Assembly: GCA_017559355.1 (NCBI GenBank)
Contig: JAFYSL010000024.1
Coordinates: 507 to 64,506, forward strand
Length of the DNA: 64,000 nt
Origin: Muribaculaceae bacterium
GTDB taxonomy: Bacteria > Bacteroidota > Bacteroidia > Bacteroidales > Muribaculaceae
Direction: 5' to 3'
Both the position numbers and the translations under genes were made by a program. Of the stretch, positions 11,027 to 27,113 are shown piece by piece. Numbering within the stretch: the first letter of the stretch is position 1; each line of letters begins with the position of its first letter. Under the pieces are notes generated by a model. It searched no databases. It saw only the letters and a program-made list of their open reading frames with translations, and was not told the origin of the DNA.

Positions 11027-13051
11027 TTACTTCACTATTCTATCCACGGCGTTGAGGATGGGGTCGGTGCTGATGGTTGCGCCTACGGCTTGTTGCATCC
11101 AGTGGTTAGGAGTTAAGCGGCCAAGTTTATAGATGCGCATAAGCTCATCGGCAAAGGCTTTTTTGTCGGCACATTTTGCGAAATGCTCTTCGAGTTGGAA
11201 TTCAATGATGTGCCCCAATGGGTAGTTGGGTAAATACATTGGCGAATTGACCATGTGAGAATATACTGCCAAGATAGGCGAATCTTTTTCGCCCAACACA
11301 GGTTGGTAATACTTATTCCACACCTCTTTAGCTATAGCGATTGTTGCGTTGCGAAGGTCGGCCGCAGTAGCTTGTGGATGTGCATATAGCCATTGCCACA
11401 CTTGCATATCAACGAGTGAAACACCCATGATTTCATATAATCCCCAGAAGATGTCGAGAGTGGTGTTGTCGTCGATTTGTTGGTCATAACCGAGTAATCC
11501 GAGGTCGCGTTTTTGGAACACAAATGCTAATGCTTCGGTGAAACCTGTGTTGGGTACTCCTGCCATCATAAAGTTGTCGATATGATAAAGGTCGATGGTT
11601 TGCTCTACGTTATGACCAAACTCGTGAACAGCGATATTATAACCTTTGTAGTCCATACCCTCGGCGCCGATGCGAGTGCGAAGGAGTGAACGTTCCCAGC
11701 GACCAACTGCTCCCCATGCGTGGCCCGATCCACGTGCGCCCTCAACTTTGATTTTGCTTGCAATAAAATCGGCATCGCTTTGTGCAAAACCTAAGTCAAC
11801 AAGCATGCGAGCCATATCTTTTTCAAATGCTTCGGGAGTTGGGTATTTTGCACGAGTTTGTGCTGTGAGATTATCTTCAGAAATAGTGCTACGACTTTTG
11901 AATCCGTCGTACCAGATATCGTAAGGACGAAGGTCTCGACCGAGGCGTTTCTTAATCAATTTGCCCACTTTTTTCACTTGTGGCGAAGAAATGAGATTGA
12001 CAAATAGTGCTTCAATCTCTTCGGGTGCGATTTCCATGCCACCTTCAAAGTTACGAGCAATACCTGTGGGGCGTTGTGGTTCGTATTGGTCCACTTTTTT
12101 CATTGTTTTGTAGTGTGCCAAGATGCGTTCGTAACGACGAGTATCTTCGGCTGCAAGTGTTACCTCAGCACCATCTTTCCATGTGCGATTGCTATATGGG
12201 CTCCAATCATACGACGCGTTATTTATCACATCTTGAGGGATTGTGCCAGCGATGATATGTTCCATTACACGATAAATCATCTCTTGCTTTTCACGTGCGT
12301 TTGGAAGTTTGGCATAGTTTGATTTTATCTCATCACGAAGATTCCAGTGAGAGAGCAACACCATGTTTTCGGGGAACAAAGTTGCACCTTTTTCGTTGCG
12401 GAGGTGTCCCATCATGATGTTGTAAGATGCTATATAGTTTTCGGCATCGGCATTTGCTTGTGCAGCCTCTTTGTTGAGCGATGCAGGAATGCGAGAGGTA
12501 AACATGTCACCCATGCGAGCGTATGCCCATTCTTCTCGACTCCAATTGCCTCCGAGTTCGTTCTTTTCGGCAAGAGTGTAGTTGGGGAAGTTGAGAATAG
12601 TGATAAATGCCACCTTATTTTCATAGAGGTCGTTCCACAAGTGAGAATAAGGATTAAACGCACTCATGATGTAATCGATATTTGTAGGTTCTGGGCCTGC
12701 AAGAATTGTGGGAAGACTCAATTCAATTGCCACTTGGTTTTGTGTGCCGAGTAACACCTCATAAGCCTTGCTCAACTTTCCAAAAAGTTCATGGCGAGCC
12801 TCAGATGTTGTAGCATAGTTTTCTTTGACAAACTTGGCAAAATCCTCTGGTGTGCCATCTGATTCTTGCCAAAGAGTAGCAACTTGACTCGCTCCACGTT
12901 GCAACAATTTGCCATCAATCGACGCATCGTCAAATGTCATTTGGCCAACCAACTCAGCCACCATATTGTTGCTAATTGTCTTTGCACTAATATTATAAAC
13001 ACTCATTGCAGTCATAATCGCGAATAGTAAAAGTTTTATCTTTCTCATCAT
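11027..13051 (-). CDS. secreted zinc metallopeptidase-like protein (HEXXH)
   Basis: Signal peptide MMRKIKLLLFAIMTAMSVYNISA. Single HEFGH motif (AVHEFGHNVEQ) with a downstream acidic residue in GFTEALAF. I do not recognise the family. Confidence 0.5.
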   Translation of the reverse strand: MMRKIKLLLFAIMTAMSVYNISAKTISNNMVAELVGQMTFDDASIDGKLLQRGASQVATLWQESDGTPEDFAKFVKENYATTSEARHELFGKLSKAYEVLLGTQNQVAIELSLPTILAGPEPTNIDYIMSAFNPYSHLWNDLYENKVAFITILNFPNYTLAEKNELGGNWSREEWAYARMGDMFTSRIPASLNKEAAQANADAENYIASYNIMMGHLRNEKGATLFPENMVLLSHWNLRDEIKSNYAKLPNAREKQEMIYRVMEHIIAGTIPQDVINNASYDWSPYSNRTWKDGAEVTLAAEDTRRYERILAHYKTMKKVDQYEPQRPTGIARNFEGGMEIAPEEIEALFVNLISSPQVKKVGKLIKKRLGRDLRPYDIWYDGFKSRSTISEDNLTAQTRAKYPTPEAFEKDMARMLVDLGFAQSDADFIASKIKVEGARGSGHAWGAVGRWERSLLRTRIGAEGMDYKGYNIAVHEFGHNVEQTIDLYHIDNFMMAGVPNTGFTEALAFVFQKRDLGLLGYDQQIDDNTTLDIFWGLYEIMGVSLVDMQVWQWLYAHPQATAADLRNATIAIAKEVWNKYYQPVLGEKDSPILAVYSHMVNSPMYLPNYPLGHIIEFQLEEHFAKCADKKAFADELMRIYKLGRLTPNHWMQQAVGATISTDPILNAVDRIVK

Positions 13052-17656: not shown

Positions 17657-20600
17657 TTATCCACATGGAATAATCACATTGTGGATATTATCAATATACT
17701 TTCCTAGTGGTATCATATATGGAGTGAATAACACCAACTTCTCATCAAATGGTGCCTCATTTACCACAATTTCCTTTGTTATATCACCATTCTCACACAC
17801 ATACTGCACAATGGTATTTAAGAAGTCCTCTTGCTCTGAATTTAGAGCGTTATCAGATAGGAACTCACTAAACTTATTCAATGCTTCTCCCCTATCGACA
17901 CCTATCAATGAACGGATAAATGCCGCTACATTACCACCAAAGAGCATATTTTGAGTATATTTGGCATAATCATCCTTGCTGCCAAGTTCTGTCCATAGAA
18001 TACGTTCCAACTCTTCTATATCCTCAACCGACAACTGCTCAATGTTGTAAATCTTCTTCAATACAGGTAAGTTGCGATTATTTGCGAGGAAGTCAATGAT
18101 ACGCTGCTTGTAAGATACCTTCATTGTAATACCTTCTGTCTCTCCGTCATCAGTAATTACATCTTCAATATCTACAACAAACCACTTACCTTTTTCGCCT
18201 TTGAGGAATTGCATCAACTCTCTAAGGTCTTTACGCACCTTCTCTAACCATTGCAAAGACAAATTCTCCCACGCAACAACCGACAACACTTCTTTCAAGG
18301 TTGCCATCTTAGCCTGTACTTGTGGTAGTGTTGCTTTCTTCTCAACGAGTAGTGTTGCAATATTTTGTACCTGTAATATCTTCTTGTCTGCTTTTACCTC
18401 ATCATTTACACATGCAAGTTCAATGTTTAATATCAACGCATCAAACATCTTAGCAGCAGGTTCCATCGTGTTTTTAGGCAACAATGGAGCAATATCATTC
18501 TTCAAGGTATGTACATCTACCTCTGACAATGACAACCAATTATCTCCCTTTTTGAAATGACTTACTTCCTCCCACTTTGAGCGTACTGAGATATGACTAT
18601 CTGAGAGTGCCATTACCTGTTCTTTTAGTATGCTCTTCAACTCATCGTGAAATGAACGACAATATTCATCTTCTTGATATTTCTGATGCTGCAAATGGAA
18701 TGCTACATCTGCTCTCAATCCAAATATACGCTCTGTAAGAGATATTGTTGATGTTGCTGCTGTACCCTCAGGATTCTTTTCAAAATACTCAAAATTACGG
18801 CACCAATCAAATATGTAAAAGCACTCTTTATTCTTGCCATTGCCAAAAATATCCTCCGACAATCGTGTGCCTCTACCTATCATCTGCATAAACTTGATTT
18901 TGCTCTTCACAATCTTGAAGAAAACAAGATTCAACACATCAGGCACATCAATACCTGTATCAAGCATATCTACCGACACAGCAATCTGTGGATTATTGTC
19001 TCTAACCTCAAACTTATCAATCAAGTCCTGAGAGTAGGTAACATAATTGTCTATCAGAGCGCAAAATTCTGACCCATATTCAGGGTAGAGTTTATGGAAA
19101 CGCTCCACTATCAACTCTGCGTGTCGATGGTTGTATGCAAATATGATACTCTTACCTATACGCTCACCATACTGTACCTTGAGACCATTCTCCATCAAAT
19201 CTTGCAGCACAGCATCAATGGTTGCTTCGTTGAATATATAACTGAATATCTCATTGTTGTTAATATCTCGCACGAATTGGTTTCCGTATGCAACCTCAGG
19301 TTCGGCAGCAATCTGACTATAAGTATCAAGTTCTTTCATTGCCATCTCATACTCCCAAACTGCCTCCATCTGCTTCTTCTCTTCGTCTGAGAGGTTATTG
19401 TACTTGATACCCTCTTTGAGAATCATTGAACCACGCTTAAATCCTCGATAGTTCACCAAATAACCCTCACTTACTGCATCCTCTAACTCATAGGCATAGT
19501 TAGGAACACCCTGTTCCATCTCAAAGATGTCGTATGTACTCTTCTCTACCTCGTTTCTTGGCGTTGCGGTCAATCCAACAAGCATTGCATCGAAGTAATT
19601 GAAAATTGCGCCATACTTACCAAAGACTGAACGGTGTGCCTCATCAATGATTATCAGGTCAAATCGTCCCACTGAGAATGGTTTATCCTCTGTGTCAATG
19701 TAGTTAATCATCGTTTGATAAGTCGAGAATGTGATGCGAGCGTTGAGGTCTTTCTCGCCACTATCACTCAACACACTTGTTGTGGTCGAAGGCAACAACT
19801 TCACAAAATTCTTGTGTGCTTGATTTACAAGTGAAATGCGGTCGGCAAGGAACAATACATTCTTTACCCAACCATTGCGCATCAACACATCTACGAGTGA
19901 TATTGATACTCGTGTCTTTCCTGTACCCGTTGCCATCACAAGCAATCCCTTGCGATGTTTATTGTTGAGGTGTTCACACACTGCTTTGATTGCCATCTTC
20001 TGATATGCTCGGTCGGTGATATGGTCTTTGACAGAGAAGTCTGAAATATCCTTTCTACTTCTCTGCTGAATCATCAATTCCAAGTCATTTGCAGTGTGGA
20101 ATCCATATAATCTTCTTGGGGGATAACCCAATCCATCTATGATGTAGGTTTCAAATCCGTTAGTGTAGTATATCACAGGGCGTACACCATACTGTTGCTC
20201 CAAGCAATCGGCATACAGTTCGGCCTGATGCTTACCCTTGATAGGTGATGCAGATGTACGCTTTGCCTCTACCACAGCAAGAGGTTTACCATTACCTCCA
20301 AACAACACATAATCCACATAACCCACTTCGTGAGCATTAGGCATACCTTTTACCTCAACCTCAATACACGCTTTGAGTGGTTCCACTGCACCCTCTGTGG
20401 GGTTGATGTTCCATCCTGCCTCCTTCAACATTAGGTCGATATACATCGTGCGTGTCTCTGCTTCTGAAATGTCACAAGCAATCTCCACCACAGGTTCAGT
20501 AGTATTTAGAATCTTTGTATCTACCTCCTTCAGTGCCTTGTCGGTTGGCAATGTATCCACCTTTGGAGGTACTATTACTGATTTCTGAACAAAATTGGGG

Positions 20601-21010
20601 ATTAAGGTTTTGTCAAATGGTTTTACATCTTCAACTACACGCAATTTGACGAGAATTGCACCCACCACATTGTAGATATTCAGTAGTGAGAAGAATGCTT
20701 CCTTCTTGGATACATTGGCACCATGAGCACCATTATTACCCACTTTGCGCACATAGTGAACTGCCATCATCACCTTATCATCACCGATGAAATCTCGAAA
20801 TGGGTCGCCATCCACCAATTCAAAAAGTGATGTACGCTCCTTTATCTCAATACGCTTCATCTTGTATATCTCTCTAACGATATACTCCAATGCTCTACGA
20901 CCATTGAACGCAGATATTTCAGGATCGCACACCTGATTCTCCTCTGCAGCAGCACAGAATCGGTGCAAGGTGCTAAGTCCCAAATCCTTTATGTAGTCAA
21001 AGTTTCGCAT
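17657..21010 (-). CDS. hsdR: type I restriction endonuclease subunit R with an extra N-terminal DUF4145-like domain and an EcoEI-R-like C-terminus
   Basis: 1117 aa. PD-(D/E)xK region GYVDYVLF...AVVEAKR. Walker A LVMATGTGKT, DEAH box LIIIDEAHRS and motif VI MIGRGTR. About 125 N-terminal residues precede the nuclease domain. Confidence 0.9.
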   Translation of the reverse strand: MRNFDYIKDLGLSTLHRFCAAAEENQVCDPEISAFNGRRALEYIVREIYKMKRIEIKERTSLFELVDGDPFRDFIGDDKVMMAVHYVRKVGNNGAHGANVSKKEAFFSLLNIYNVVGAILVKLRVVEDVKPFDKTLIPNFVQKSVIVPPKVDTLPTDKALKEVDTKILNTTEPVVEIACDISEAETRTMYIDLMLKEAGWNINPTEGAVEPLKACIEVEVKGMPNAHEVGYVDYVLFGGNGKPLAVVEAKRTSASPIKGKHQAELYADCLEQQYGVRPVIYYTNGFETYIIDGLGYPPRRLYGFHTANDLELMIQQRSRKDISDFSVKDHITDRAYQKMAIKAVCEHLNNKHRKGLLVMATGTGKTRVSISLVDVLMRNGWVKNVLFLADRISLVNQAHKNFVKLLPSTTTSVLSDSGEKDLNARITFSTYQTMINYIDTEDKPFSVGRFDLIIIDEAHRSVFGKYGAIFNYFDAMLVGLTATPRNEVEKSTYDIFEMEQGVPNYAYELEDAVSEGYLVNYRGFKRGSMILKEGIKYNNLSDEEKKQMEAVWEYEMAMKELDTYSQIAAEPEVAYGNQFVRDINNNEIFSYIFNEATIDAVLQDLMENGLKVQYGERIGKSIIFAYNHRHAELIVERFHKLYPEYGSEFCALIDNYVTYSQDLIDKFEVRDNNPQIAVSVDMLDTGIDVPDVLNLVFFKIVKSKIKFMQMIGRGTRLSEDIFGNGKNKECFYIFDWCRNFEYFEKNPEGTAATSTISLTERIFGLRADVAFHLQHQKYQEDEYCRSFHDELKSILKEQVMALSDSHISVRSKWEEVSHFKKGDNWLSLSEVDVHTLKNDIAPLLPKNTMEPAAKMFDALILNIELACVNDEVKADKKILQVQNIATLLVEKKATLPQVQAKMATLKEVLSVVAWENLSLQWLEKVRKDLRELMQFLKGEKGKWFVVDIEDVITDDGETEGITMKVSYKQRIIDFLANNRNLPVLKKIYNIEQLSVEDIEELERILWTELGSKDDYAKYTQNMLFGGNVAAFIRSLIGVDRGEALNKFSEFLSDNALNSEQEDFLNTIVQYVCENGDITKEIVVNEAPFDEKLVLFTPYMIPLGKYIDNIHNVIIPCG

Positions 21011-22179
21011 TATTTTTTAATGGGATTATTTTGTTTTATTTTATTAGACAAATTCATTCGTCCTGCAACACTTGCTAATGCACTCATTTCTTGCATTCTT
21101 CGTTGTACCTCGCTAAATCCACCTAATTTATCAATAGATTGCCGAAATTCGTCTAACTGAGGAAATCTCGTATTTCCAAAGGTAGAATATGTTTCGGTTA
21201 ATTTATCTTGTATGCAATCCCAATCTATAGGATAATATAAATTTCTTATTGTTTCTTCAGAAAATATGGTTCTTATAGAATTATATTCGTCCCAATCAGA
21301 ATCAGAAGTCTTAACCTTTGAGATTTCATTAAGCGTTTTCTGACTTACTTTCAATTCCTTATTGCGTTTTGCATAATCCAAGAACCGACCACTATCATAT
21401 ATCAAAATACTTTGTCCTGTATTATCTGAGAACTCTTTTATTAACTCCTTTCGTGGAGAGTGTTTGCCTTCTTTCTTATCCCACCAATCGAGTTTATGGT
21501 CGTCTGTTATAAAGATTACACTTTTCGCCTGCTCTTTACAATGGAGAATTGTTTGTTTCCAAACTATCAAATCTCCATACAAACCTCTTTTCCCATTCTC
21601 TTTCTTATTCTTTTCATCACAATATCCTGGTGGTATTTTATTGGCATATCGTTTTTCACCTTCTTTGTATAATGCTTCCAAATCTTTTTCATCAAAATCA
21701 TTTCCCACACGTCCATCAAGTAGATTTGTAACAGATTGTAAAATTTTATCATCACTTAAATAATCAGGATGCTCTCTCCCTTGCTTCTCTAATGATTTTG
21801 CTATTGATTCTGCACATCTTTTCACCTTCTTCTTTATATCTTTAATACTGATATATGGATGGCGAGCATATTCACCCTCCAAAGAGCTAATAGCTCCTAC
21901 CAAATCTTTTGATAGTTTTTCTGCCAATACACTATACGCTTTGGCATTTTTACGCAGAATCTCTTCTCTGCGCCTATGAAACTCCAATCCCACCTGATAT
22001 GGAATCCACAAACGCTCTTTGTAGAATTTTATGACCTTAATAAATTCTTCACGAGTATCATCGTTATAACGATACAAGTTCAATAATACATTTGTATCAA
22101 ACACAATCAATGAATTATCCCATATCTCATTGATGCGCTCTTCTGTTAATTCGTAGTATTCCGCAAATAGTTTCTTCAT
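21010..22179 (-). CDS. PIN-like domain protein embedded in the type I R-M operon
   Basis: 389 aa. N-terminal LIVFDTNVLLNLYRY (PIN beta1 Asp) and later VIFITDDHKLDWW acidic cluster. The C-terminal ~150 aa has no motif I recognise. Its stop overlaps the hsdR start (TAATG). Confidence 0.6.
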   Translation of the reverse strand: MKKLFAEYYELTEERINEIWDNSLIVFDTNVLLNLYRYNDDTREEFIKVIKFYKERLWIPYQVGLEFHRRREEILRKNAKAYSVLAEKLSKDLVGAISSLEGEYARHPYISIKDIKKKVKRCAESIAKSLEKQGREHPDYLSDDKILQSVTNLLDGRVGNDFDEKDLEALYKEGEKRYANKIPPGYCDEKNKKENGKRGLYGDLIVWKQTILHCKEQAKSVIFITDDHKLDWWDKKEGKHSPRKELIKEFSDNTGQSILIYDSGRFLDYAKRNKELKVSQKTLNEISKVKTSDSDWDEYNSIRTIFSEETIRNLYYPIDWDCIQDKLTETYSTFGNTRFPQLDEFRQSIDKLGGFSEVQRRMQEMSALASVAGRMNLSNKIKQNNPIKK

Positions 22180-22188
22180 ATTGTTGTA

Positions 22189-23319
22189 TTAGTTAAAATA
22201 ATAATCCATTCGTGAGTTAAACAACTCTTCTATTTCCTTGATTGATTGCTTAATCAACTCTTTTTGTTTCTCTATCGCTTCAATCTTATCTGCAAATTCT
22301 TGTTGAAGAGCGAGTGGTGGAAATATTAGCGACATTTCATTGATTATATTAACCGATATGCCAGGTTGTGCGACTCCTTGTGCAAATCGATTAAGATTAT
22401 TGAATCTCAAAGTATAATACATCCACATAGGATTAATATCATCGATAATATTATTGCATACAACAGCGTGTTCTGTTGCATAGAATTCTCCTTGTGCGAA
22501 CACTACATTTCCACATAATGCACCTTGTCTGCCAATAATGGGAAAAGACCCGTTGTGAGATTTTTTATTTATATACCCTCGTATCCCATTACCCCCATAG
22601 CATGGAAATAGTCCTTCATTAGGGATTCCTGAAAGTTCGTTTGCTTTTATTGATTTTCCTGCTTTTAGCACTGCTGCATTTTTTAAGAGAACTTCCTCCC
22701 ATCCCTTTTCATTCGTAATAGGGTCGCCAAACATAGTGTAGAAGATTGACTCAGCAAGGGCATCAAGTTCTTTCAACTGCTGTTTCTTCTTCTCAATCAC
22801 CCCACTCAAACAATCCAACTCCGCCACAATCTTTTCTTGCTCAGCAAGTGGAGGGATAGGCACATCAATAGTTTTAAGATCTGTAACTGATATGCTTGAC
22901 TGATTTACTGCATCCTTTCGTCTATTGGCAATTTGACTTTTGAATTTGTGTGTTTGTGAATAGTGGTAAAAGTAAAATGGACTAATAATTTCGGAAGTCA
23001 CTTTTAGCCTTAATAAATTCATTCCGTGAATAATTGTCTCATCCCCATCTTTTTCGTACACTACTACACGACCAATATATGCTTTACTATTGATGTGTGA
23101 TAACAATAAATCACCTGATTCCATCACATAAGATTGGTAGTTGTCTATGGTCTCAATATCAGCATATCCAAGCCTATCTCTATTAAAAACGCCACCAGAC
23201 AATGTTTCTATACGAGTAATAGGGATTCCTCCTGCACCTCGCTCCTGCTTGATGTTGGCACCATTCTTAATGTATTCAAAACACTCCCCGAGTTTCTTTA
23301 TTTCCCAACCTTGTTTCAT
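22189..23319 (-). CDS. hsdS: type I restriction-modification specificity subunit S
   Basis: 376 aa. Two target-recognition halves separated by the conserved PPLAEQEKIVAELD...LKELD helix and ending PPLALQQEFADKIEAIEKQKE. Confidence 0.85.
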   Translation of the reverse strand: MKQGWEIKKLGECFEYIKNGANIKQERGAGGIPITRIETLSGGVFNRDRLGYADIETIDNYQSYVMESGDLLLSHINSKAYIGRVVVYEKDGDETIIHGMNLLRLKVTSEIISPFYFYHYSQTHKFKSQIANRRKDAVNQSSISVTDLKTIDVPIPPLAEQEKIVAELDCLSGVIEKKKQQLKELDALAESIFYTMFGDPITNEKGWEEVLLKNAAVLKAGKSIKANELSGIPNEGLFPCYGGNGIRGYINKKSHNGSFPIIGRQGALCGNVVFAQGEFYATEHAVVCNNIIDDINPMWMYYTLRFNNLNRFAQGVAQPGISVNIINEMSLIFPPLALQQEFADKIEAIEKQKELIKQSIKEIEELFNSRMDYYFN

Positions 23320-23323
23320 TTCT

Positions 23324-23989
23324 TTAATTTAGATTACAGCGTTCTGCAATTTTGTCTACAAATTTCCGCTTCATAAGTTTTGTTTTACGCTTCATAAAAC
23401 TATTTATTTGTTCGGTTGCTAATGGTTTGTAAAAATCATTTGGAATGATAGATAATAGTGTCTCCATTTGTTTTTTCTCTCCATTCAGCAAACATTCTAC
23501 AGAAAGCGAATCATCAATGGTTACATCTTGATTGTTTTTCTTTTCTATAGATACTATCATGTAGAATAATTTGAGTGTTGTCACCATATATATCAATACA
23601 TTCCTATACTCTTCAAGTGTTGATTTTTCAGATGGGTATTTAAGCTCTAAATCTGCATAATTCTTATTAAACTCATCGAAGAGTTCCGATATTTCTAAGA
23701 TTTCCTTTGAAAAAGGTTCTTTTATAGAATTGCGTTCTGGGATATAATATGTAAACACTCTGAATATAAACAAATCTATTTGAAAATCAACATCCTTTAT
23801 TAGTTTATATAATTTACTATTCACATCATACTCTTGAACCTTTGTTTGGCGTTTTTGTAGTTTTATTTGTACAACCGCAATTACTATTACCGCAACAGTA
23901 CTTATTGCAGACAAAATCACTCCCCACCAAGCAGGGTCAGCTATAAACTCAATAAATTTGTTTAGTAGTATTTCCGTTTCGTAGTCCAT
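23324..23989 (-). CDS. hypothetical single-pass membrane protein embedded in the type I R-M operon
   Basis: 221 aa. One hydrophobic helix WWGVILSAISTVAVIVIAVVQI followed by KLQKRQTK. The rest is charged and helical with no recognisable motif. It ends 4 nt before the hsdS start and is very AT-rich. Confidence 0.5.
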   Translation of the reverse strand: MDYETEILLNKFIEFIADPAWWGVILSAISTVAVIVIAVVQIKLQKRQTKVQEYDVNSKLYKLIKDVDFQIDLFIFRVFTYYIPERNSIKEPFSKEILEISELFDEFNKNYADLELKYPSEKSTLEEYRNVLIYMVTTLKLFYMIVSIEKKNNQDVTIDDSLSVECLLNGEKKQMETLLSIIPNDFYKPLATEQINSFMKRKTKLMKRKFVDKIAERCNLN

Positions 23990-24060
23990 TTTTTACTCTA
24001 TCTGTCCTTCGTGCTCAAAAATTGCGTTTTTTTGAGCATATCTATTAGTCTTCCATTATT

Positions 24061-24088
24061 AATAATCACATAACAGTCACATAAGATT
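24061..24088. repeat. 28-bp direct repeat, copy 1 (AATAATCACATAACAGTCACATAAGATT)
   Basis: Identical to 24150-24177. Contains two TCACATAA units 11 bp apart. Confidence 0.9.
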
Positions 24089-24149
24089 TACATTGCAAAT
24101 GTTCTAATAATCAAAGAAATGTGTATTTTACCTTGCTCCAAATTTGGAT

Positions 24150-24177
24150 AATAATCACATAACAGTCACATAAGATT
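24150..24177. repeat. 28-bp direct repeat, copy 2
   Basis: Identical to 24061-24088. It abuts and overlaps the stop codon of the AlbA_2-like gene. Confidence 0.9.
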
Positions 24178-25621
24178 ATGCCCAATATGGAAGATATCGT
24201 TTATATTTCTTAGATTTATTGTCGGTATCCACCTCTTTAATAACTCCTGCCAATAAAGCGTCTTTAATTAATCTTGATGCCATAGAGTAGTTTTTATCAT
24301 CTATATTAAATCGTTCACGTAATGACTGATTCGACATAAAATCATTTGACACCCATTTTAAGCATGCATGTTGATAAACTGCTCTAATTTTATCATTTCT
24401 ATCCATTTCACGCAGTTGTTTATATGCATATAATATAACCTTAGTATGAACGTCAGAAGAGACGAAATAAGGAGCTGGCAATTGATAAAATTCACATTGA
24501 AAAATAACCTTATCTATTCCACTGCCTTTCTCTTCACATACCTTCATCCTTCGCATTAACGATGCTAACTTCTCATTTCGAGAGCGATATTCATCAATAA
24601 AACGAATAGGATCAATAAGAGGTTTACCAGGGTTGGAAAACTCAATTCTATCGTTATAAATTTCTATCAATGTAGCAGTCCCCGATACGCTAAAATCTTG
24701 ATGAATAATACTATTGGCTACTAATTCACGAATTGCCAATTGAGGATACATTCTAACCTCTTCACGAAGAGAATCACCGATTACTTCATTTCTTGGAAGT
24801 AAATCATTAATAAATTTAACTAATGAAGTAAAACCAACAGCATAACCCTGTGTAAATTCTTCATCTAAAATAGTTTTAATCTTATTGTTTCCAGAATATT
24901 GAACAACTCTAACTATTTTACGTTCCAATGATTTGAAATCGTGAAGATTTTTTGCAAATAAAATTCCTCCAAGATTAGTAATGGAATAACTTCCCTCTTT
25001 TTTTATTACAAGCCCATCTATTATCAATCTCTCAATTACCCCATCTTGATTTGTAGGATATGGTAATCCCAACATGTCAAAATAAGACTGGGTGTCCAAT
25101 AATCTTATTATATCTGCCGAACTACAACCATCAATAGCTGTATATGTCTCAAAGTTATATTTAATATTATTCCAAATTTTTCTCTCTTTACTTGGGAAGT
25201 CGCTTAGTTTTCTCGTAATGCTACCAACTCGTATATATGGAACCTTCTTATAGTCTACAGGTTCATTTTCTGCTGCTGGAATTTCAAACAAAGAAATATC
25301 TTTTCCATCACACTTAAATTCATAAATACGAAAGTCAATGCGTGGAGTTAAGTTTTGAATTAACCAATTTTCTAACTCATTATTCCCAATTTTCTTTTGT
25401 GATGGTTTAAATGTAGTGCCTAATATTTCATGCGATTCATCATCTACCCCAAAAATAAGATATCCATAAGCCCTATTATCGATACAAGCAGAATTGGCAA
25501 TTGCCGAAATCCGTTCTCCGATTTCATCTTCAGTGTGAAAATTATGTTTAAATTCAACCCACTCATTTTCTTTGGGTAAGGCAACTAATTGTTTTAGTAA
25601 AACACACAATCTTTGTTCCAT
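24176..25621 (-). CDS. AlbA_2/Schlafen-like DNA-binding domain plus HATPase_c_4-like domain protein (COG2865-type putative regulator/ATPase)
   Basis: 481 aa. ENEWVEFKHNF near the N-terminus (AlbA_2 E-x-E-F-K signature) and AIRELVANSIIHQDF further on (RecG-C/HATPase_c_4-like). Its start is 1 nt after the hsdM stop. Confidence 0.65.
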   Translation of the reverse strand: MEQRLCVLLKQLVALPKENEWVEFKHNFHTEDEIGERISAIANSACIDNRAYGYLIFGVDDESHEILGTTFKPSQKKIGNNELENWLIQNLTPRIDFRIYEFKCDGKDISLFEIPAAENEPVDYKKVPYIRVGSITRKLSDFPSKERKIWNNIKYNFETYTAIDGCSSADIIRLLDTQSYFDMLGLPYPTNQDGVIERLIIDGLVIKKEGSYSITNLGGILFAKNLHDFKSLERKIVRVVQYSGNNKIKTILDEEFTQGYAVGFTSLVKFINDLLPRNEVIGDSLREEVRMYPQLAIRELVANSIIHQDFSVSGTATLIEIYNDRIEFSNPGKPLIDPIRFIDEYRSRNEKLASLMRRMKVCEEKGSGIDKVIFQCEFYQLPAPYFVSSDVHTKVILYAYKQLREMDRNDKIRAVYQHACLKWVSNDFMSNQSLRERFNIDDKNYSMASRLIKDALLAGVIKEVDTDNKSKKYKRYLPYWA

Positions 25622-25622
25622 A

Positions 25623-27113
25623 TTACAACATTTTCTTCAATTCATTTAATGCACTTTGGATTTCATTTTCCAATTGTTCGATGCGTTCCATTATCACCTC
25701 AGGGGCATCATATGTTACCACTTCACGCTCTACCTCCTTATACTTGTTGATTGAGAGGTCATATCCCTTCTCACGAATTTCATCGACAGGCACGAGGAAT
25801 GATTGCTCCTTACGGGTGCGTTCCTCTTCTGCTGCGAGGTTATGGAAACGAGCAACAATGTCGGGAATATCACTTTCAGCAACCTCATTGCGCTTTTGGT
25901 CAAGAGAATAACCATCTGCTTTCATATCGTAGAACCACACCTTGTCGGTTCCTCCTGCATTGGTCTTGGTGAAAATCAAGATTGCGGTACTCACGCCCGA
26001 ATATGGTTGGAACACTCCCGATGACATTGAGATAACTGCTTCCAAACGATGGTTGTCAATCAATTCCTTACGGATAGACTTGTGTCCTGTACTATTCCCA
26101 AACAACACCCCATCAGGAACGATACTTGCACATCTACCACCTGTCTGCAACATACGCACAAACAGAGCAAGGAACAACAACTCAGTTTTCTTGGTCTTGG
26201 TGATTGCAAGCAAAGACTTGCTCACTGCCTCATTGTCAAGACTACCTGTAAATGGAGGATTTGCAAGACAAAGAGAATATCGGTTCTCATCGGTGTTGTC
26301 GGTCGAAAGACTATCACGATAGGCAATATCAGGGTTATCTACTCCGTGAAGCATCAGGTTCATTGCACCAATACGCAACATTGTGGCATCGGTATCAAAA
26401 CCATGAAGCAAACCATTCTTGTAGTGGTCGGAATTCTCTTTCTTGAGAAGTTCACTCTTATAGTGTTGTTGGATATACTTTGCACTCTCCACGATAAAAC
26501 CCGCTGAACCCATAGCAGGGTCGCAGATGGTGTCCTTCAATGTTGGTTTCATCAGTTCTACCATCATACGGATAATGTGTCTTGGAGTACGGAACTGACC
26601 ATTATTACCCGATGCTGCCATCTTACCCAACACATACTCATATACATCACCCATAGTATCACGATTGTTCATATCGAGGTCATTGATGCCCTCAACAATC
26701 TTTGTCAATGTGCGTGGTGCCTGAATCAAGAACGAAGCATTTGCCATAAAACGACTATATGCACTCTCTTTACCTTCACCAAGATTCTTGATAAAGACAA
26801 ACACATCCTTGCTGATAGTGCGGTACATCGCCTCTGCCTCCATATTGCGAAACACACTCCAACGAAGTTGCTCATAAGGCACATCTTTGTCAGTGTCGGG
26901 GTTATGCCACATACCTTCCTTGAAAGTAGGGTCTTTCAATGCAGTGCCCCAAGCGTTAGCACTTGCTTCTTTGGTGCGCTGAGCATCATCGAGCATCTTC
27001 ATAAAGAACAGATAGGTCATCTGTTCAAGGATAGTTATAGAATTGGTAATACCTCCTGTCCAAAAGGTGTCCCATATAGAGTCAATACGATTCTTGATTT
27101 CGCCTGTTATCAT
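25623..27113 (-). CDS. hsdM: type I restriction-modification DNA methyltransferase subunit M (N6-adenine)
   Basis: 496 aa. HsdM N-domain, AdoMet motif DPAMGSAGF and catalytic LANPPFTGS. Confidence 0.9.
   Translation of the reverse strand: MITGEIKNRIDSIWDTFWTGGITNSITILEQMTYLFFMKMLDDAQRTKEASANAWGTALKDPTFKEGMWHNPDTDKDVPYEQLRWSVFRNMEAEAMYRTISKDVFVFIKNLGEGKESAYSRFMANASFLIQAPRTLTKIVEGINDLDMNNRDTMGDVYEYVLGKMAASGNNGQFRTPRHIIRMMVELMKPTLKDTICDPAMGSAGFIVESAKYIQQHYKSELLKKENSDHYKNGLLHGFDTDATMLRIGAMNLMLHGVDNPDIAYRDSLSTDNTDENRYSLCLANPPFTGSLDNEAVSKSLLAITKTKKTELLFLALFVRMLQTGGRCASIVPDGVLFGNSTGHKSIRKELIDNHRLEAVISMSSGVFQPYSGVSTAILIFTKTNAGGTDKVWFYDMKADGYSLDQKRNEVAESDIPDIVARFHNLAAEEERTRKEQSFLVPVDEIREKGYDLSINKYKEVEREVVTYDAPEVIMERIEQLENEIQSALNELKKML

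Follow-up and report, generated by a model that had tools for sequence, protein, structure and literature searches.

A predicted PIN_8-family nuclease gene as probable exchangeable cargo at the hsdS-hsdR junction of a Bacteroidales type I restriction-modification operon

Why is a gene for a predicted nuclease placed between the specificity gene and the restriction gene of a type I restriction-modification (R-M) operon, and is its product a part of the restriction enzyme or a separate weapon that shares its transcript? In this study, the question was raised by a reading frame of 389 amino acids (aa) plus stop at positions 21010..22179 on the minus strand of a stretch of Muribaculaceae bacterium DNA (assembly GCA_017559355.1, contig JAFYSL010000024.1, positions 507 to 64,506), which was analysed over its whole length of 64,000 nucleotides (nt) and is hereafter called the window. 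The original prediction, made from the letters of the window, regarded the product as a PIN-like nuclease candidate coupled to HsdR and possibly a second-line effector with a logic like that of PrrC. We arrive at a different answer, to which we give a probability of roughly 0.55, namely that the gene is optional, exchanged cargo that encodes an autonomous nuclease of the PIN_8 family and is co-transcribed with the operon, and that this nuclease is probably an auto-inhibited defence effector whose C-terminal tail sets its trigger or partner specificity.

The family membership of the protein is clear. It matches the Pfam model PIN_8 (PF18476) with E=7.4e-67 and 226 bits (cut-off 26.1), with residues 24-246 (21442-22110; all operon features given here lie on the minus strand) covering the complete model (1-227 of 227), and it also exceeds the cut-off of PIN_12 (PF16289, former DUF4935) with 37.6 bits against 32 (E=3.8e-9). 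Its Pfam matches consist only of PIN_8, PIN_12 and PIN_4, with no ATPase domain, and a search of NCBIfam gave nothing meaningful for it. Matelska et al. (2017) placed PIN_8 in the VapC group, as a PIN-like cluster of unknown function that has 4-5 active-site residues, and remarked in a general way on a coupling of some PIN-like genes to genes of type I R-M systems. An alignment of 79 members from Bacteroidota, Bacillota, Pseudomonadota, Acidobacteriota, candidate phyla and one archaeon shows that the window protein possesses 4-5 such conserved acidic residues. Invariant in all 79 are D28, N30, E66, Y82, R177, P183-P184-G185, D188, G202, D203, W207, D231, W232, E249, Y261 and E285, while position 226 is Asp in 74 and acidic in 76 of the members and position 227 is D or E in every one. 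D28, the Asp that is predicted to bind metal and lies where strand 1 ends, whose codon position was checked (22096..22098), stands together with N30 in VFDTNVLLNLYRY, and D226, D227 (codons 21499-21504) and D231 (21487-21489) stand in IFITDDHKLDWW; E66 (21982-21984), D188 (21616-21618), D203 (21571-21573) and E249 (21433-21435) complete the acidic residues that are predicted to be catalytic or are invariant. The two acidic motifs that had first drawn attention to the gene are therefore real, and at (nearly) invariant positions of a family matched at the above E-value they go beyond chance.

The structural model is in agreement with this assignment. AlphaFold2 (AF2) gives a confident model over residues 8-293, with pLDDT values (predicted local distance difference test) of 80-92, in which strands at residues 24-27, 57-59, 221-224 and 258-261 are accompanied by a long helical insert (residues ~61-217, inside the core) separating strands 2 and 3. 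D28 and D226/D227 lie at strand ends, and E66 lies in the helix after strand 2, an order that agrees with a PIN fold into which a large helical insert is built. Because the full-length PIN_8 hidden Markov model match, the conserved acidic residues and the AF2 order point the same way, the identification of the protein as a predicted PIN-like nuclease is strongly supported, as had been proposed at the outset. The enzyme would probably depend on Mg2+ or Mn2+, and its substrate may be RNA or DNA.

The second main feature of the protein is its division into a conserved core and an exchangeable tail. Matches to distant relatives by tblastn and phmmer run from residue 1 to ~293 throughout, although the total lengths of these relatives range from 340 to 500 aa, and in the profile of the 79 members conservation drops away past residue 293. 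The conserved nuclease core accordingly comprises residues 1-293 (21301..22179), and the tail comprises residues 294-389 (21013..21300). The original prediction found no nameable motif in the C-terminal ~150 aa, and this has to be divided, for residues ~247-293 with the invariant E249, Y261 and E285 still belong to the core, whereas only residues ~294-389 are hypervariable and unalignable, even among homologues that are 56-76% identical. In a set of 125 close relatives (Bacteroidales of gut and rumen, at least 54% identity), 14 unrelated tail types can be told apart over the last ~100 residues. For the discussion of these relatives, L001 and similar labels denote loci of PIN_8 relatives, and L097-L176 denote loci anchored on HsdR. 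The clearest pair is L081 and L084, in which HsdM is 98%, HsdR 97-99% and the PIN core 94% identical, but the tails are only 14% identical, and in which the DNA homology ends at PIN codon ~289 and restarts exactly at the hsdR ATG. Unrelated tails were met in 33% of the pairs whose cores are at least 95% identical, such as P0063 and P0065 with a core identity of 100%, and conversely identical tails are carried on cores that are only 50-76% identical in their middle part, as in P0033 and P0088. Homologous tails, by contrast with these, have diverged to about the same degree as the core (L003 is ~74% identical to L081 in DNA over the whole gene including the tail), and the tail is therefore a constrained module. 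Read from these alignments, the variation of the tail is one of cassette exchange rather than drift.

The window tail itself is predicted by AF2 to be helical at low confidence (pLDDT 43-67), and a search with this tail alone among 5.8 billion proteins brought up no close relative. A modest acidic bias is present, with a net acidic tail in 89% of members. Three possible correlates of the tail were considered. That it is an HsdR-specific adaptor was rejected because near-identical HsdR proteins, including their N-termini, occur with unrelated tails; that it tracks a 221-aa protein encoded upstream was rejected because this protein is 99% identical between L081 and L084, the tails of which are 14% identical; and that it tracks the downstream cargo was not upheld, as L081 and L090 both have AbiL and yet unrelated tails. 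The type-1 tail is seen both with AbiL and with an Mrr-like gene, and all eight loci compared differ in both the tail and the second HsdS recognition domain. No silent tail cassettes, hsdS cassettes or inverted repeats were found in the window. We propose that the core would do the cutting and that the exchangeable tail of ~100 aa would set what is sensed or bound.

The third line of evidence is the site. In the window the operon reads, on the minus strand and according to Pfam and PADLOC, hsdM, a Schlafen-like gene, the 221-aa gene, hsdS, the PIN gene and hsdR, and with hsdM, hsdS and hsdR all at full length it is a type I R-M operon. The PIN gene is tightly packed, with 9 nt between the end of hsdS and its ATG, and its TAA stop (21010-21012) has one A in common with the hsdR ATG to form the TAATG at 21008..21012 (minus strand ...AAAAAATAATGCG). 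Both the frame and this overlap were confirmed on the sequence. The 1-nt overlap is peculiar to the window, however, since in relatives the two genes are spaced by 0-41 nt or other genes intervene. PIN genes between hsdS and hsdR were also found in L002, L004, L005, L081, L084, L087 and L090, and the settings of the close clade include a position directly before hsdR, an AbiLi/AbiLii pair in between, and an extra 259-aa gene preceding. The GC content of the embedded genes is 0.30-0.37 (PIN core 0.344, tail 0.306, 221-aa gene 0.303, Schlafen-like gene 0.322, hsdS 0.369), clearly below that of hsdM (0.435), hsdR (0.407) and the flanking housekeeping genes (0.42-0.435).

When the question was turned around and 80 metagenomic loci with an HsdR 56-88% identical to that of the window were inspected, not one of them carried a PIN_8 gene. 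Both hsdS and hsdR were visible in 66 of these loci, with the two genes adjacent in 26-29 and separated by cargo of 19 families in 37; the junction is therefore a hotspot for known and candidate defence cargo, in which PIN_8 is one rare occupant. The cargo includes PDC-S01, PDC-S02, PDC-S05, AbiU, AbiL, a PD-(D/E)xK protein, an M48 peptidase and two unknown families. Of the latter, one consists of proteins of 368-428 aa with no Pfam or PADLOC match in six loci (e.g. L120:1604-2785), and the other of proteins of 190-273 aa with a weak, sub-threshold 23S_rRNA_IVP match, again in six loci (e.g. L113:7371-7943). Moreover, close relatives of the PIN gene are found in places that lack a type I system, either beside AbiL where R-M genes are absent (L092, L093) or beside an Mrr-like type IV enzyme (L003); such relatives have about 72% identity over the 79% of the query that aligns, and ~73% in the DNA of the core. 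Related HsdR enzymes can dispense with the gene, which is not a constant partner of them. Stoichiometric co-expression with HsdR, which had been judged likely from the stop/start overlap, is not supported by the comparative data, with an overlap that is not conserved, a tail that does not co-vary with HsdR, the absence of the gene from all 80 related HsdR loci and the relatives without a type I system. The broader idea that a second defence effector occupies the gap between S and R fits a site that is a hotspot for such cargo. We picture the gene as horizontally exchanged cargo lodged in the junction of an EcoAI/EcoEI-like operon of Bacteroidales, from which an autonomous, single-protein defence effector would most likely be made that stays inactive in uninfected cells and is triggered on infection.

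Across the wider family, such R-M operons are only one of several contexts. An alignment-based scan, made where a single-sequence scan had found nothing, returned about 398 matches among 185,579 species representatives with a patchy distribution, and the family size is about 8,000 clusters at 50% identity. It was also detected on 73 plasmids, some of no more than 4-6 kb, in one sequenced phage and on at least 105 IMG/VR viral contigs, and this mobility, like the solitary loci that follow, speaks for an autonomous gene. The original prediction would have been refuted by a family living mostly outside R-M or defence contexts, and in this respect the result is divided: 56 of 78 species-representative loci are solitary, with no conserved neighbour and heterogeneous surroundings (transposases, integrases, a few defence genes and many housekeeping genes), whereas 22 are in tight operons with three different restriction-type modules. 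The type I arrangement accounts for four loci (L001, L002, L004 and L005), all from Bacteroidales and with a PIN protein 61-74% identical to that of the window. In 16 loci (L006-L016, L018, L022, L023, L039 and L042; e.g. L008:10001-15794) a tight operon with overlapping genes encodes PIN_8 (~344 aa), HerA/DUF87 (715-750 aa), NurA (~457 aa) and an N6/N4 DNA methylase (~375 aa), the hosts being mostly Flavobacteriia, Chitinophagia and Sphingobacteriia together with one alphaproteobacterium. The NurA and PIN_8 proteins of this operon had no PADLOC match, and in L008 the operon adjoins a HamA-like open reading frame (ORF); it looks like an undescribed restriction-modification-like system. In the remaining two loci, both from Sphingobacterium (L019:10001-19782 and L021), a 460-aa PIN_8 protein is encoded directly before DndF, DndG and a protein of 1726 aa that has a HerA-like ATPase domain and is probably DndH.

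The tails differ between these contexts. Members of the HerA-NurA-methylase class have a conserved acidic tail of 47-72 aa, those of the DndFGH class a 170-aa tail with several zinc-ribbon motifs of the CxxC kind, and elsewhere four members were seen to carry a PcrA/UvrD Tudor domain, one a Top1 zinc ribbon and one GntR. The PcrA/UvrD Tudor domain binds RNA polymerase, and the Tudor tails give hints that some PIN_8 members act at transcription complexes. All four Tudor-tailed proteins are solitary.

A number of points weigh against the reading of the window gene as autonomous cargo. Neither the window protein nor the L008 homologue matched any of the 5027 models of PADLOC v2.0.0 at E<=0.01, and in the literature no experimental test of any PIN_8 member was found. 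As regards the fold, the strand order of the AF2 model fits a PIN fold, but a Foldseek search of the full model against the Protein Data Bank (PDB) yielded no significant match, with the PIN-like HARP and PRORP the best at E about 1; a profile search of PDB sequences likewise found no relative. The HsdR-anchored sample of 80 loci comes from a different sequence collection than most of the close PIN homologues. Additionally, a functional link to the R-M enzyme would likewise agree with the very tight spacing in the window (9 nt upstream, a 1-nt overlap downstream). Finally, the operons with HerA, NurA and a methylase in 16 species and with DndFGH in two indicate that at least some members are integral to restriction-type machines, and the same could hold here. 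Because these operons are conserved, two readings that tie the nuclease to a restriction machine gain some weight.

The first of them is the one that the original prediction had raised. As in the case of PrrC, binding to the type I enzyme would keep the nuclease latent, and the inactivation of that enzyme by an anti-restriction protein of a phage would set it free. The gene position matches that of prrC in EcoprrI, which likewise lies between hsdS and hsdR, and the close operon spacing with its stop/start overlap, as well as the recurrence of the family beside three modification-based, translocase-driven modules (type I, HerA-NurA-methylase and DndFGH), are in line with such a guard. No antitoxin gene is present, so some masking mechanism would be needed. 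The comparative data, nevertheless, do not support a dependence of this kind, on the same four points that speak against stoichiometric co-expression: the overlap is not conserved, neither tail nor core co-varies with HsdR, as shown by unrelated tails beside near-identical HsdR proteins, the gene is missing from all 80 related HsdR loci, and close relatives live without a type I system. Again, the AbiL pair stands between the gene and hsdR in L081 and L090, and the protein has no sequence relation to PrrC and no ABC-ATPase domain. We therefore consider a guard of the type I enzyme unlikely.

In the second of these readings, the PIN_8 protein would be an accessory nuclease subunit that processes DNA (flaps, ends or structures left by stalled translocation) together with HsdR, HerA or DndH and thereby boosts the degradation of unmodified DNA. 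PIN-like folds include DNA flap nucleases. The overlapping HerA-NurA-methylase operon kept in 16 species with its conserved acidic tail, the position of PIN_8 directly before DndF, DndG and the 1726-aa HerA-like ATPase protein, and the tails that are DNA- or RNA-polymerase-binding modules (PcrA/UvrD Tudor, Top1 zinc ribbon, GntR) speak for such a subunit. For the window, however, HsdR has its own nuclease region (Pfam HSDR_N), related R-M systems do without the gene, and most family members are solitary, which leaves this possibility somewhat more doubtful than the guard.

A third alternative, which we regard as improbable, is that of toxin and antitoxin, where a VapC-like toxin would stabilize the R-M island or a plasmid by addiction, with the antitoxin encoded by a separate small gene or fused as the C-terminal tail. 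The tails, acidic in most members and poorly ordered in AF2, resemble antitoxin tails. Again, on plasmids of 4-6 kb PIN_8 is the sole accessory gene, with small ORFs just upstream. The fold class, moreover, is that of the VapC-group PIN proteins (Matelska et al. 2017). Against these points, no conserved small upstream ORF was found across 82 loci, the neighbours in the window are hsdS and hsdR, and the free exchange of tails between cores argues against tight co-evolution of toxin and antitoxin. A fused antitoxin that doubles as a sensor, on the other hand, would be no competitor, as it merges with the proposal of an auto-inhibited cargo nuclease.

A separate observation concerns a short ORF (91-92 aa; weak Cas2-like match at E=0.001) directly upstream of PIN_8 in a Prevotella metagenome-assembled genome (L053:9723-10001) and in a 5.2-kb Klebsiella plasmid (L094:2710-2985); the two are 34% identical to each other, and this ORF may be a partner in that sub-branch only.

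The last alternative, a housekeeping or regulatory RNA-processing nuclease that has no role in conflict and is here by chance, has in its favour the many solitary copies with housekeeping neighbours and the lack of experimental defence data found for the family, but is highly improbable in view of the patchy distribution, the occurrence on plasmids and in prophages, the mosaic recombination with a hypervariable module, the repeated embedding in restriction operons and the vicinity of AbiL and type IV enzymes, and a GC content that is low compared with the host backbone.

The remaining genes of the operon deserve a short description. HsdR (17657..21010, 1117 aa) is an EcoAI/EcoEI-like type I restriction subunit with Pfam matches to ResIII, HSDR_N, EcoEI_R_C and DUF4145 and a PADLOC match to REase_I (E=1e-164); its match to the EcoAI family of NCBIfam falls under the cut-off of that model. 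The DUF4145 domain, which also matches PADLOC PDC-M16A, occupies residues 29-112 at the N-terminus, before the nuclease and helicase regions, and it is in this stretch that the HsdR proteins of relatives are least conserved (50-85% identity). HsdS (22189..23319, 376 aa) contains two target-recognition domains, seen as two stretches of Pfam Methylase_S and a PADLOC Specificity_I match, and HsdM (25623..27113, 496 aa) matches Pfam N6_Mtase and HsdM_N as well as PADLOC MTase_I (E=9e-181). The 221-aa gene (23324..23989) has no Pfam, PADLOC or NCBIfam match. Most of the related type I loci that were examined have a homologue immediately before hsdS, often with a 4-nt overlap; such homologues are present in L001, L002, L004, L005, L081, L084 and L087, where they are 20-54% identical save for one pair, and absent in L090.

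The gap between hsdM and hsdS is a second cargo slot. In the window it holds, as the second cargo gene, a 481-aa gene with Schlafen AlbA_2 and HATPase_c_4 domains (24176..25621; Pfam, with weak PADLOC matches of PDC-S50 and Aga type), which in relatives is replaced by RelA_SpoT (PDC-S33, L090) or by a protein of 154 or 265 aa. In the 186-nt gap between the Schlafen-like gene and the 221-aa gene, a perfect 29-nt direct repeat, TAATAATCACATAACAGTCACATAAGATT, was noticed at 24060-24088 and 24149-24177, 89 nt apart; possible readings are an operator, a promoter region inside the operon or a scar left by recombination. The operon is flanked by lpxB and a low-molecular-weight phosphatase gene. Elsewhere in the window, a 674-aa ORF at 11027-13051 on the minus strand has no Pfam match at E<=0.001.

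With regard to significance, the PIN_8 family, the principle of embedding and a machine-learning prediction of a defence role were already known, whereas what appears to be new here is that the tail behaves like a cassette and that operons with three kinds of restriction module recur. If our proposal is true, PIN_8 adds a large family, spread over many phyla, plasmids and prophages, to the single-gene anti-phage nucleases. Identical cores with different tails, and the reverse, would then be natural experiments on how an effector is silenced and how its trigger is chosen. Moreover, the hsdS-hsdR junction of this gut Bacteroidales type I system is a busy slot for defence cargo and is useful for finding further systems; the knowledge of type I restriction itself is unchanged by these findings. 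As a bolder and decidedly speculative extension, which we would not expect to hold in full, PIN_8 proteins might be widespread single-chain immune nucleases with a constant catalytic core and a plug-in sensor or adaptor tail that recombines like the target-recognition domains of HsdS; depending on the tail, the core would dock on translocase machines (type I, HerA-NurA-methylase, DndFGH) as a guard that fires on their inhibition, or would sense phage proteins directly.

Comparison with known systems places the window protein among several well-described arrangements. PrrC of EcoprrI is an anticodon nuclease in a type Ic R-M locus, with its gene between hsdS and hsdR, and the likeness consists in this position and in a second nuclease housed inside a type I operon; PrrC, however, combines an ABC ATPase with an anticodon-nuclease domain, whereas the window protein is a PIN protein without ATPase for which the comparative data speak against obligate coupling. 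In the effector-HerA systems (SIR2-HerA, DUF4297-HerA) the effector gene is directly before the HerA gene, as is the PIN_8 gene, which precedes and overlaps HerA in 16 species, but those PIN_8 operons add NurA and a DNA methylase, and the window locus is without HerA. From type II VapBC modules the locus differs in that no adjacent small antitoxin gene is co-conserved with it, either in the window, with its neighbours hsdS and hsdR, or across the 82 loci.

Within the Pfam PIN_8 cluster, the window protein is a member with the same 4-5 predicted active-site acidic residues and with no difference at the domain level; the published description of PIN_8 is without the hypervariable tail and without the restriction-operon contexts. 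Payne et al. (2024) showed that a defence role is frequent for genes lying inside Hma, BREX, DISARM and type I R-M operons, one of their systems being HEC-03, a pair of ABC ATPase and PIN in which both genes are needed, and TgvAB of V. cholerae is a tested example inside a type I operon. The same logic of guilt by embedding as for their embedded genes (HEC-01 to HEC-09, PDC) applies here, and related S-R slots hold PDC-S01, PDC-S02, PDC-S05, AbiU and AbiL, although PIN_8 itself matches none of the HEC or PDC models of PADLOC v2. In the machine-learning study DefensePredictor (Science 2026, PMC13092281), the label "predicted novel defense gene" is given to genuine PIN_8 proteins, for example E. 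coli WP_114499597.1 (HHblits PF18476, 99.9%) and two proteins with an N-terminal DTNILLNLYRY motif, none of which was found in its table of cloned systems.

Two validated systems of that study (PMC13092281) also bear comparison. DS-5 is a PIN_12 nuclease system that requires its catalytic residues and a second, DUF5830/AcrIF4-like protein. Its nuclease has a PIN_12 match of 64 bits and a weak PIN_8 match, and the window protein is also above the PIN_12 cut-off (37.6 versus 32 bits), but it has no DUF5830/AcrIF4-like neighbour, being flanked by hsdS and hsdR with the 221-aa protein that lacks a Pfam match, and an hhalign comparison with the PIN_8 alignment covers the first ~60 residues only, at a probability of 8%. 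DS-3 (working id "PIN8", WP_022645725.1) consists of one split-PIN protein, depends on its catalytic residues and works without an antitoxin. We rejected it as a validated member of PIN_8, as it has no Pfam match at all and an hhalign probability of 0.5% against the PIN_8 alignment, so that it is an analogue and not a relative. As an analogue, DS-3 is one protein with PIN halves split by a long insert and no antitoxin, which its authors propose to be auto-inhibited until infection, and this is the same logic that we propose for the window protein.

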